From positions 4,317 to 68,316 of the forward strand of contig DATGXS010000046.1 of NCBI GenBank assembly GCA_035298745.1: 64,000 bases of DNA. The letters are read 5' to 3'. Below are positions 10,678-14,401 of this stretch, piece after piece. Positions within the stretch are counted from its first letter, which is position 1, and the number at the start of each line of letters is the position of its first letter. This stretch comes from Lentimicrobium sp. (GTDB lineage Bacteria > Bacteroidota > Bacteroidia > Bacteroidales > Lentimicrobiaceae). The translations under genes were made by a program, and so were the position numbers. The notes below the pieces were generated by a model. That model worked only from the letters and a program-made list of their open reading frames with translations. It was not told where the DNA came from and made no database searches.

Positions 10678-12759
10678 TTACATACCGAAATTATATCCTA
10701 ATTTTAAAAATATCAATCTACCTGGTGCTATTGTATTTCTGCTATCAATGTAATGATTGTCAAGAAGGTTCTGTACCATTAATGATGCATACATCCCATA
10801 ATAAACAGGACGCCATAACTGGAGATCTATCATGTAATAGCTTTCAAGTTCCTCGGTATTAATATCATTCATCCACTGTGCGCCTTTGTAACTGAATACA
10901 GTTGTTACGTTTACAACCTTATTTTTCCAGGTTGCGGTAAGATTGAGAAGATCTTTCGGTTGATATACCAATTCTTTTCCTGATAGATCTTCTGCATCGG
11001 TTGCTGATTTATAATCAATAATATCTGTAAAGGTATAACTGTATGAAAAAAGGCACTCCAGATTTTTTACCGCTTTGAGTTTAAAGGACAATTCAGCTCC
11101 ATAAAGTCCGACTTTCCCAATGTTGCTTTTTATTATAATCGGCCTTAGCTTTTTATTCAGTACAATGGAATCACCGGTTGATATATATGCGTGGTAATCA
11201 GTCCCAACTGAATAAAAGACAGAAGCGCTGAATTCCATTTTTTTTGTTAAAAACAAATCAGTTCCCAACTCAAGGTTATCAAGATATTCTGGTTTAAGAT
11301 TTGGATTTGCTATCTTCATTCCACCTGAAATTCTTCCTGTTCTGCACATATCATCGAGTAACGGTGGCCTGTATCCTTTGCTATAGCCAATGTATACCCT
11401 GAATTTTTCAGGTCTGTAATACTGAACCGAAAGACGAGGACTGATTGCAGAGAAAACAGTATTATCAAGGTTGCTGCTAAAGTCGCTGAGGAAAGCAGTT
11501 TCCCTGGTGGGATTTTCGACCTTAAATACACCGTCATTAAAAATAGCATAGTCAAACCTGATTCCTCCCAGAAGACTGAATGGTGTTTCCCGGAATTTAA
11601 GTTCATCTTGTAAATAAATTCCATAAAGGCCCATTTTCCCTTTATTAATAACTTTATCGCTGGAAGTTACATACTTATCGGCAGCATCAACAGCATTATA
11701 ACGTAAGTCGATTCCCAGACTCAATGTATTTCCTTTAAACGGCGAAATTGTATAGTTAGATAAAAAGCCATAATCATCACGTATTGATAAAACATCATAC
11801 CTGGTAATTATCGTGTCTTTCAGACTCTCTTTAATGTTAATGTAATTTTCACGCTGGGTGTAAAAGTTTAGCTTAAGACTGCTATTGTTTTTAAATGTAT
11901 TAGCATAGCTTAAATGGGCATTGATTACTTCAAAAAGATTATAAGCTCCATTATTAGCTGCCAATTCATCATTTTTGAAATTGAAACCCGTAAAATCGGT
12001 GCCTGTTCCACGTTTTCCTGAATAGTAATTTCCTGCGATTTCTAATTTACTCATGTTATTGATGAGATAACCCGCCCTGGCACCTGCATTATATTCATAA
12101 AGAAAAGCGGGAATTGTATATTCATTCTGTTCATCAACTGGTGTTGTAACATAACCATCACTGGTACGGAAACCACCATTAACCGCCCAATAAAGTTTCT
12201 TATTTAAACCTTGAAGCCCCACAGTAGTCTGGAGCGTCGAAAAAGTTCCAATACTCTGCGAAACATTACCCTGTAATGGCTTTGTTGGCAGCGGTGAGAT
12301 GAGGTTAATTACGCCCCCCATTGCATTTCCGCCATGAACTGTGGAGCCGGGGCCTTTCAATACTTCAATCTTACTAATGTCAGACACGTTAACAGCATTC
12401 CAGTTGACGGTTCCACCATCGCCTTTATTAATTGGTATGCCATCTACCATTACTAAAACACGCCCGGCTTCATTACCCATTCCACGCATTGATATGTTTG
12501 CTGAACCAAAGATTGATGCCCCTCTGCTTATATTTAATCCCGGAACCATTAAAAGTAGATTGTCAGCTGCCAAAGAAGGCATGTTTTCAATTGAATTGCA
12601 ACTAATTACATCAACCCGTTGTGGAACTTCAAAAAGATTGCGCTCGTTGCGAGTTGCTGTAATTATAACTGTACTCAGATTTACAGTATCAATTTCCTGT
12701 GAAAAAACGATTTGACAGGTCATCATGATGAGGACTAGAATTCCATAAAATTTCTTCAT
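10678..12759 (-). CDS. TonB-dependent outer-membrane receptor (BtuB/CirA-like size), substrate unknown
   Basis: Signal peptide, TonB box TVIITATR, plug motif IEVLKGPGSTVHGGNAMGGVINLI, C-terminal PGRLIFLKLGYNF. Confidence 0.9.
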   Translation of the reverse strand: MKKFYGILVLIMMTCQIVFSQEIDTVNLSTVIITATRNERNLFEVPQRVDVISCNSIENMPSLAADNLLLMVPGLNISRGASIFGSANISMRGMGNEAGRVLVMVDGIPINKGDGGTVNWNAVNVSDISKIEVLKGPGSTVHGGNAMGGVINLISPLPTKPLQGNVSQSIGTFSTLQTTVGLQGLNKKLYWAVNGGFRTSDGYVTTPVDEQNEYTIPAFLYEYNAGARAGYLINNMSKLEIAGNYYSGKRGTGTDFTGFNFKNDELAANNGAYNLFEVINAHLSYANTFKNNSSLKLNFYTQRENYINIKESLKDTIITRYDVLSIRDDYGFLSNYTISPFKGNTLSLGIDLRYNAVDAADKYVTSSDKVINKGKMGLYGIYLQDELKFRETPFSLLGGIRFDYAIFNDGVFKVENPTRETAFLSDFSSNLDNTVFSAISPRLSVQYYRPEKFRVYIGYSKGYRPPLLDDMCRTGRISGGMKIANPNLKPEYLDNLELGTDLFLTKKMEFSASVFYSVGTDYHAYISTGDSIVLNKKLRPIIIKSNIGKVGLYGAELSFKLKAVKNLECLFSYSYTFTDIIDYKSATDAEDLSGKELVYQPKDLLNLTATWKNKVVNVTTVFSYKGAQWMNDINTEELESYYMIDLQLWRPVYYGMYASLMVQNLLDNHYIDSRNTIAPGRLIFLKLGYNFGM

Positions 12760-12813: not shown

Positions 12814-12836
12814 CGACTTGCAGTTTTTGCATATCG
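12814..12836 (-). promoter_or_regulatory. Candidate ModE-family operator, copy B
   Basis: Minus strand reads CGATATGCA-aaaac-TGCAAGTCG (7/9 palindromic), 55 bp upstream of the TonB receptor start. First half-site is identical to copy A. Confidence 0.65.
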
Positions 12837-12850
12837 AAGATTAAAAAAAA

Positions 12851-13225
12851 TTACTCTATTATTTTATTCAGATCGTCGAGCATCTGGTCAAACTTTTTTC
12901 TGATGCCTCCATCCATTTCATTATATAATTTGTCGAAAAAGTCAACCAACATTTCACCTTTCTTAGTTAAATTAGTTTCACCTCCCTTTGAACCTCCACG
13001 GGATTTTTCAATCAGGTTGAAACCAAGTTTTGTTTCAATCTTTTTAAGATTCTCCCATGTTTGCCTGTATGCGAAACCCATTTGTTCACAAGCTGCTTTA
13101 AGTGAGCCAGTTTCCCTGATGGCCTTTAAGAGTTTCCACTTTCCTTCGCCAAGTAGATTTATTTTGTTATCGGTTTCAATCCAAAACTTATAATTGAGCT
13201 GCAGATGAATTTTATGATTTTTCAT
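12851..13225 (-). CDS. modE: ModE-family winged-HTH regulator, N-terminal domain only (no molybdate-binding TOBE domains)
   Basis: KWKLLKAIRETGSLKAACEQMGFAYRQTW...LIEKSRGGSKGGETNLT matches the ModE_N signature. About 124 aa. Start set at MKNHK; the track ORF starts at 13276. Confidence 0.8.
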   Translation of the reverse strand: MKNHKIHLQLNYKFWIETDNKINLLGEGKWKLLKAIRETGSLKAACEQMGFAYRQTWENLKKIETKLGFNLIEKSRGGSKGGETNLTKKGEMLVDFFDKLYNEMDGGIRKKFDQMLDDLNKIIE

Positions 13226-13248
13226 TTTAGAATCAGTTTTCAATTTAA

Positions 13249-13256
13249 TACCTTTG
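13249..13256 (+). promoter_or_regulatory. -7 element (TACCTTTG) for the lipoprotein gene
   Basis: TAnnTTTG match immediately 5' of the palindrome. Confidence 0.6.
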
Positions 13257-13257
13257 C

Positions 13258-13280
13258 CGATATGCATGATTTGCATAACG
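13258..13280. promoter_or_regulatory. Candidate ModE-family operator, copy A
   Basis: CGATATGCA-tgatt-TGCATAACG (8/9 palindromic) between the divergent modE-like and lipoprotein genes. Resembles E. coli ModE boxes (CGTTATAT...TACATAACG). Confidence 0.7.
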
Positions 13281-13288
13281 CAAATTTA
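13281..13288 (-). promoter_or_regulatory. -7 element (TAAATTTG) for the modE-like gene
   Basis: TAnnTTTG match on the minus strand, abutting the other side of the palindrome. Confidence 0.6.
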
Positions 13289-13303: not shown

Positions 13304-14401
13304 ATGCGAAAATTGTTAATTTACCTGGGTTTGATTCTGATTATCAATTTTTTAACAGGATGCTATCCTGTAAAAACAAGTTCCACTGATGCGTTATCTG
13401 GAGCAACAACTTCTAAATTGAGCAGCAGAAACAGCCTTTTCCATAATACCCCGGGTATTCAATTAGAAACCGGAGAATTGAAAATTGAAGGAGAAATACA
13501 GCATCCTGGAAAGATAGATTTTAATAAGTTTTATCATCGGGAAGTTTTCGTCAAGGAGACAATGATTAATAATAAAAATGAGCCTGAGTTTATAGGCGCA
13601 TATAGATATTCGGGGTATTCACTTTTTGATTTACTCAATGAGTATGTGCCTGCAAAGAAGAATGCAGCAATTTTTCGTCCCGAAATTGATCTGTACATAA
13701 AAGTGGAAAACGATCATGGTGACTATGTTGTTTTCAGTTGGTCAGAAATCTTTCACACAATAAATCCGCATCAAATCATTATTGCTACAGAGGTTGCACA
13801 GATTAAACCACACAAAAAAGAAATTAACTATCCGGTTGGCAAAACATGGAAAATAGTCGCTGCTAATGATTTATATGCTTTCAGGAATTTGGAAAATCCG
13901 GTCAAAATAACTGTATGCTCTTTTGATAAGAAAGTTTATACCATTAACAGGGACTTGCATACACTATATTCGCCTGAGCTTAAAGTTATTAAGGAAAGTA
14001 ATAGTCATGCGAATCCTGTCATAGAGTTTACAATACATCAACCTTTAAGTAGTGAAAGAATTGCAAACTATTCGTCAACCTTTTATGGTATGGGAATGGG
14101 ATATCATCCTGTTCCTGGTTTTAGCGGTTTTTTATTACAGGATATTTTAAAAGATTCGTTAAATCTTGTAACCGGTGCTTCAATTTCAAAAGGCCTGGCA
14201 TGTTTTGTTTCGATTGATGGTTACAGGGCAATATTCAGCAATAGTGAGCTCTTTAACCGAGTTGATCAATGCCAGCCAATGCTTTCAATAGTTGAAAACC
14301 CAAACGATGGGGGATATTTTCGCATCTTCCTCCCTACAGACTTTTATGCTGACCGGTCGGTGAAGGGATTGAGTGAGATTTATTTTTTTGAGGTCAAATA
14401 A
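13304..14401 (+). CDS. Lipoprotein with two tandem sulfite-oxidase/MsrP-like (Oxidored_molyb-type) domains
   Basis: Lipobox LTG-C20. Duplicated motifs YSGYSLFDLL/FSGFLLQDIL, GDYVVFSWSEIF/DGYRAIFSNSELF and ANDLYAFRNL/PTDFYADRSVK. DALSGAT motif near the N-terminus. Confidence 0.6.
   Translation: MRKLLIYLGLILIINFLTGCYPVKTSSTDALSGATTSKLSSRNSLFHNTPGIQLETGELKIEGEIQHPGKIDFNKFYHREVFVKETMINNKNEPEFIGAYRYSGYSLFDLLNEYVPAKKNAAIFRPEIDLYIKVENDHGDYVVFSWSEIFHTINPHQIIIATEVAQIKPHKKEINYPVGKTWKIVAANDLYAFRNLENPVKITVCSFDKKVYTINRDLHTLYSPELKVIKESNSHANPVIEFTIHQPLSSERIANYSSTFYGMGMGYHPVPGFSGFLLQDILKDSLNLVTGASISKGLACFVSIDGYRAIFSNSELFNRVDQCQPMLSIVENPNDGGYFRIFLPTDFYADRSVKGLSEIYFFEVK

Follow-up and report, generated by a model that had tools for sequence, protein, structure and literature searches.

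ModE boxes are textbook elements, and the ModE protein of E. coli is known to protect the region of the modA start. A one-domain form of the protein, which lacks the Mop domains, is found in Agrobacterium tumefaciens (2IJL, 135 aa), where the single-domain ModE is said, in work by Hoffmann et al. from 2016, to control modABC, and we know of no report of a 23-bp frame for this protein. A literature search returned nothing usable on either a TonB-dependent W/Mo system or the Mop-less ModE in Agrobacterium. The Mo-box of E. coli reads atCGnTATATA-N6-TATATAnCGat, in a 24-bp frame (PMC545781), and the ModE motif of M. acetivorans is RTTATGT-N8-RCATAAY, both arms of which are needed in EMSA (PMC12327845). 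In Desulfovibrio, ModE genes that encode a single DNA-binding domain are located beside modABC, with an unclear sensing mechanism and a predicted site of the form CGGTCACG-N14-CGTGACCG (PMC545781).

The stretch of DNA analysed here (the window) is 64 kb long and corresponds to C46:4317-68316 of a 3.77-Mb genome, with 39% G+C and a completeness of 97%. Two palindromes flank the gene of a ModE-like regulator in this window (Table 1), and are very probably the operators of a homodimer of this 124-aa protein, which is predicted to repress a TonB-dependent receptor, a lipoprotein, and its own gene, forming a local regulon under a probable W/Mo signal.

As in E. coli, the locus presents a homologous wHTH and an inverted repeat whose ends are CG and whose cores are TAT/ATA, together with a site that would lie over a metal-uptake promoter, although both the promoter and the W/Mo role are predictions here. 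In contrast with E. coli ModE, which has a di-Mop molybdate sensor and targets modABC, the local regulator stops after the DNA-binding domain, its box is one of 23 bp, with the arms CGAnnTGCA / nnCATAwCG, and the presumed targets are the TonB-dependent receptor and a SUOX-fold lipoprotein. The Agrobacterium protein is the best match among solved structures, but it is alphaproteobacterial and only about 30% identical to the local regulator. The half-site of M. acetivorans, TTATG(T/C), is nearly identical to the arms in the window, but its frame reaches 24 bp once the CG ends are added, and its ModE protein keeps the Mop domains. The Desulfovibrio proteins, which also consist of the DNA-binding domain only and whose metal sensing is likewise unclear, differ in their quite distinct predicted site and in their position beside modABC.

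Table 1. Coordinates of the features of the locus and of the second ModE-like gene (positions in the window, except where a contig is given).
Feature	Position	Strand	Description
TonB-dependent receptor, 693 aa	10678..12759	-	Plug + TonB_dep_Rec_b-barrel; presumed target of operator B
Predicted operator B	12814..12836		23-bp palindrome; + strand CGACTTGCAGTTTTTGCATATCG; minus strand CGATATGCA-AAAAC-TGCAAGTCG
T8 run	12843..12850	-	follows the regulator stop immediately; 6 nt separate it from operator B; may belong to the receptor promoter
ModE-like regulator, 124 aa	12851..13225	-	wHTH + C-terminal helix, no Mop/TOBE
TACCTTTG, TAnnTTTG match	13249..13256	+	1 nt upstream of operator A; putative lipoprotein promoter
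Predicted operator A	13258..13280	+	23-bp imperfect palindrome CGATATGCA-TGATT-TGCATAACG; divergent gap between regulator and lipoprotein
TAAATTTG, TAnnTTTG match	13281..13288	-	abuts the other end of operator A; putative regulator promoter
Lipoprotein, 365 aa	13304..14401	+	contains two SUOX/PruR-like domains; operator A is its presumed control site
Second Mop-less ModE-like gene	C25:70230-70598		44% identical to the local regulator

The regulator and the two palindromes

The assignment of the regulator to the ModE family, made in the initial annotation, is borne out by profile and structure matches. The protein matches PF00126 at 31.9 bits (cut-off 26.6) and TIGR00637, the ModE repressor domain, with an E of 6.4e-20, at 71.1 bits, which is under the curated 98.5, and its best match in the PDB is 2IJL (E 1.6e-8, residues 24-115), with the E. 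coli ModE structures 1B9M/1O7L matching at an E of about 6e-7. The match to NF007957 spans only positions 22-106 of the 263 in this profile, and the protein ends at residue 124, with none of the tandem C-terminal Mop/TOBE molybdate-binding domains. Judged by its sequence, then, the regulator is a ModE N-terminal domain without the metal-binding part, that is, a member of the single-domain (Mop-less) ModE-like class. No TOBE/Mop domain was detectable at E <= 0.001 anywhere in the 97%-complete genome, despite the presence of wtpABC; the ATPase of this transporter apparently also has no recognisable TOBE tail.

The orthologues of the regulator are 115-124 aa in length, and their alignment backs the ATG at 13225 as the N-terminus. 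The longer reading of 141 aa given by automatic ORF calling, with a start at 13276 that would fall inside operator A (extra span 13226-13276), finds no support in the N-termini of the orthologues.

Both palindromes were found where the initial annotation had placed them, with identical sequences, and both are intergenic and flank the regulator, as it had described, with A upstream of the start and B past the stop. The regulator ATG at 13225 (-) and the lipoprotein start at 13304 are separated by 78 bp, which contain site A, and site B is located between the regulator stop at 12851 and the receptor start at 12759. Each has the form 9-N5-9, in a 23-bp frame, with arms that are complementary at 8/9 positions in site A and at 7/9 in site B. 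The first half-site, read in the direction of transcription, had been described as identical in the two copies, which is true of this genome, but not of the family, where the two sites point the same way when read on the strand of the regulator: the left arm is CGAsTTGCA and the right arm nnCATAwCG.

The ideal palindrome, with up to three mismatches allowed (<=3), has two matches in the 64-kb window, A and B, where 0.00 were expected from 100 shuffles. With <=2 mismatches, these two sites are the sole matches in the whole 3.77-Mb genome, and they are also the sole intergenic matches genome-wide for both the strict and the degenerate 23-bp patterns. The motif had been expected to map a whole regulon, and this expectation was not sustained, because the genome scan recovers just these two operators: in this genome, the regulon is strictly this locus. 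The additional matches of the degenerate pattern, which might have pointed to a wider 23-bp regulon, are all within open reading frames, at C29:55744 inside that of a permease and at C66:43292 inside that of a TPR-like protein, for example. A 23-bp match common to the genomes G014 and G019 is also internal, in this case to the reading frame of a HigA-like protein.

Conservation and spacer length of the boxes

Orthologues of the regulator are present in 2/39 genomes of the same family. Both of them retain site A, 23 bp long and in the same place, and one also retains site B; in the second genome, regulator and receptor are joined in a single operon, with no space for the site. The box CGAnnTGCA-(A/T-rich)-nnCATAwCG precedes the lipoprotein start by 9-48 nt in 32 unique loci, and is also present at this position in the held-out loci, and a second box of 23 bp lies between the regulator and the receptor in 15 loci. 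Conservation in orthologues, the check proposed in the initial annotation, is thus observed at both positions across independent Bacteroidales loci. In the alignment of 31 sites of 23 bp, the positions G2, A3, G7, A9, C17, C22, and G23 are invariant, and the sites form an inverted repeat with arms of the Mo-box type, CGnTAT...ATAnCG. No ModE-type box was found at three held-out solitary lipoprotein genes, L133-L135. One of these (L133:1345-1385) has another palindrome, CGGACAG-N12-CTGACCG, directly after the -7 box TATCTTTG, which recalls the motif of the Desulfovibrio single-domain ModE.

Palindromes of this type might also act as hairpins in RNA or DNA, such as a terminator, an attenuator, or an element of RNA stability, rather than as protein sites, given that each site can fold (about -11 kcal/mol; z-scores from -2.1 to -3.3 relative to shuffles) and that site B is located just past the stop codon of the regulator. 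However, no terminator is predicted, and the T-run comes before site B, not after it. The two arms do not covary in the 31 aligned sites, with 66.7% of the cells pairing, in comparison with 65.9% in shuffles, and arm positions 3-5 are conserved without being complementary, which argues for selection on the sequence itself, as in a protein site, rather than on a hairpin. The conserved columns, in addition, fit the known ModE box, and all of this makes the hairpin highly improbable, in favour of a role of the palindromes as operators.

The length of the boxes, scored as 23 or 24 bp from the invariant CG ends together with G7/C17, follows the presence of the regulator. The box proximal to the lipoprotein in the 23 regulator-bearing loci is 23 bp long in 20 and 24 bp long in three (L050, L066, and L073), and the box between regulator and receptor is one of 23 bp in 15/15 loci, including L066 and L073. 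In box-bearing loci with the receptor and/or the lipoprotein gene, but demonstrably no regulator, the length is 24 bp in 7/7. In the first set of loci, before the later look-ups, the association of spacing with the regulator has a Fisher p of 4e-4, over loci that are not phylogenetically independent. The later look-ups L129-L132 provided a held-out test of the spacing rule. L129 has the closest relative of the lipoprotein and the same downstream neighbour, but no regulator, and presents two 24-bp boxes; its promoter flanks are orthologous to those of the window (TTTAATAnCTTTGC-CGA...CG-CAAAtnTA), with one extra base in the spacer. In L130-L132, where the regulator is present, both boxes are 23 bp long.

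The sole 23-bp box without a regulator is that of L043, where the site is mutated (G7 to A) and decaying. On the right-hand side of the operator, this locus and L044 share 95% identity, and a rearrangement has removed the regulator and most of the receptor gene from L043, a loss that is recent relative to L044.

Phylogenetically, the regulators adjacent to the lipoprotein group in a single clade (support 89/98), which is separate in the tree from the ModE-like proteins of the other genomes in the genus and from those that head wtp operons. The window genome has one such relative (Table 1), located in the region C25:70230-76686 (L027, L117), near the gene of a 718-aa tungsten-type aldehyde:ferredoxin oxidoreductase (AOR) and a ThiF/MoeB-like gene. 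At C25:75980, before the AOR gene and between this gene and the ThiF-like one, is the 24-bp box CGATATGCAGCTCATTTCATAACT, and a weaker 24-bp candidate precedes wtpA on C48. The strong boxes near ModE-like genes of other clades are all 24 bp in length, and the second clade is accompanied by 24-bp boxes beside wtpABC and the tungsten aldehyde oxidoreductase gene. In G055, a ModE-like gene is fused to wtpA, with 24-bp boxes, and the box at the receptor/lipoprotein pair is also one of 24 bp.

The initial annotation had described a lineage-specific box, one base shorter than that of E. coli. The shortening holds, and it tracks the clade of the local regulator, but the lineage does not account for it: the short frame is specific to the paralogue, rather than the organism, because the same genome also carries 24-bp boxes. 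The 23-bp frame, with a distance of 10 from G7 to C17, is thus probably the signature of the local regulator clade. The protein itself may nevertheless tolerate both spacings, given the close relationship between the regulators of L063 (23 bp) and L073 (24 bp).

The main binder could alternatively be the paralogue encoded on C25, or both proteins could bind, in which case the local protein would not read the 23-bp frame specifically and the spacing would be the product of neutral drift in the A/T-rich spacer. The recognition helices of the two clades are nearly identical (YRQTW vs YRRTW), and the 24-bp lipoprotein sites of the three regulator-bearing loci, as well as the single base that separates L063 from L073, are what such drift would produce. 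Against this, 23-bp sites are never found without the local regulator, save for the fresh deletion in L043, and the sites tied to the clade of the paralogue are all of 24 bp. Two genomes, G014 and G019, moreover, have a regulator of the local type only, with no second paralogue, and still keep their 23-bp sites, and binding by the paralogue is overall unlikely. The 24-bp matches in these two genomes are within a coding sequence read from its translated frame as ruvC, and their wtpA genes have no upstream gap.

With the local regulator retained as the binder, its wtp-linked ModE-like relatives would read the classical 24-bp frame, and the local clade the 23-bp frame. The residues specific to the clade are mostly beyond the recognition helix, at Q55 (vs R) and, in the C-terminal helix, at F96, L100, and Y101, and it may be speculated that they would fit an altered geometry of the dimer, rather than an altered reading of the half-site. 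More tentatively, and with some doubt, the contraction of the spacer from 24 to 23 bp may be the recognition code of a separate Mop-less clade, giving a TonB-dependent W/Mo (or pterin-cofactor) module a private switch, apart from the 24-bp wtpABC/AOR regulon. If true, this would be a natural separation of paralogues by half-site spacing, not by half-site sequence. The coexistence of two regulators is not required for the 23-bp frame, as G014 and G019 demonstrate, and the avoidance of the paralogue cannot, then, explain this frame in all cases.

Predicted promoters and mode of action

In the Bacteroidetes, the -7 element of the promoter is TAnnTTTG. Two matches to this element face each other across operator A (Table 1), which would cover approximately the first 20 transcribed bases of both promoters. 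On the left, the form nAnnTTTG is found 0-1 nt before the site in 13/16 related loci, and the right box is conserved where a gene is transcribed leftwards from this point, with a perfect TAnnTTTG in G014, G019, L050, L065, and L129-L131. No convincing -33 TTTG element was found when it was looked for. Operator B of the window genome has no clear -7 box before it, just a conserved T-rich tract, and 10 loci have a TTTTTTTA-like tract of this type, 5-8 nt upstream of their site B. In L066 and L073, by contrast, a true TATnTTTG box is found upstream of site B, sandwiched between two 23-bp sites.

A homodimer of the 124-aa protein would bind both 23-bp palindromes. Operator A, just downstream of the two face-to-face -7 boxes, would cover the transcript starts of the lipoprotein and the regulator, a position that would be that of a repressor and would imply autoregulation, and operator B would guard the receptor gene downstream of the regulator. 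The bound protein would then repress all three genes, the receptor, the lipoprotein, and its own.

Activation from these sites, as by E. coli ModE at moaA and dmsA, would be consistent with the lack of a clear -7 box just upstream of operator B in the window genome, and proteins of the ModE family can indeed activate transcription (PMC12327845). It is decidedly unlikely here, however, given that operator A comes directly after the nAnnTTTG boxes and over the predicted starts, an arrangement conserved in most loci, and that the -7 box of the receptor lies between two sites in L066 and L073.

The signal to which this repressor responds is probably W/Mo status, because the genes under its predicted control belong to what appears to be a tungstate/molybdate acquisition module. 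With no recognisable ligand-binding domain in the protein and no TOBE/Mop domain in the genome, the regulator may also be a signal-blind autoregulator.

Linked genes and the tungsten or molybdenum context

The lipoprotein matched no Pfam or NCBIfam family, and hundreds of its relatives are found in Bacteroidales metagenomes. The AlphaFold model (pLDDT 81.6) resembles YedY/MsrP, sulfite dehydrogenase, and the pterin-binding PruR, the top matches in Foldseek being YedY 1xdy, SorA 2blf, and PruR 7kom. Residues 29-35 of this lipoprotein (13388-13408) read DALSGAT, which fits the flavinylation motif of the ApbE type (Dxx[ST]GA[ST]) and is located in a disordered tether past the lipobox. In 29 homologues, D29, A30, and G33 are invariant, and A34 is nearly so. 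An ApbE gene is present in the window genome at C20:49349-50179.

The genomic neighbourhood of the lipoprotein gene was surveyed in 80 of the 496 metagenome loci and in seven later look-ups. The gene is linked to the receptor in 38 of 82 related loci and, over the 80 + 7 loci, to the local regulator in about 23 and to the WtpA/B/C genes of the tungstate transporter in about nine. In some loci, it is embedded between wtpA and wtpB, and in some a gene of the tungsten-type AOR lies nearby. The window genome has its own wtpABC, at C48:91282-94138, and the WtpA match reaches 367.7 bits, over the cut-off of 355. The linked genes are at least as suggestive of tungstate as of molybdate, and this linkage also indicates that the receptor and the lipoprotein are likely to belong to a W/Mo acquisition module.

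In about 18 loci (L051, L060, L067-L089), which have operons of the form LP298-TBDR-lipoprotein, a second lipoprotein of some 298 aa is encoded ahead of the receptor. It has no match in NCBIfam, and may be a surface partner of the receptor.

What is new here is a consistently shortened frame tied to one regulator clade, together with the targets. It represents a natural specificity rule, in which the arms are the same and the spacer is one base shorter, in association with a single clade of regulators. The TonB receptor and the uncharacterised SUOX-fold lipoprotein are, in turn, marked as putative metal-regulated genes in the uncultured Bacteroidales, and a metal-regulated receptor supports the idea of an active uptake of W or Mo across the outer membrane. 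The locus also sharpens the question of how the Mop-less ModE proteins sense anything.
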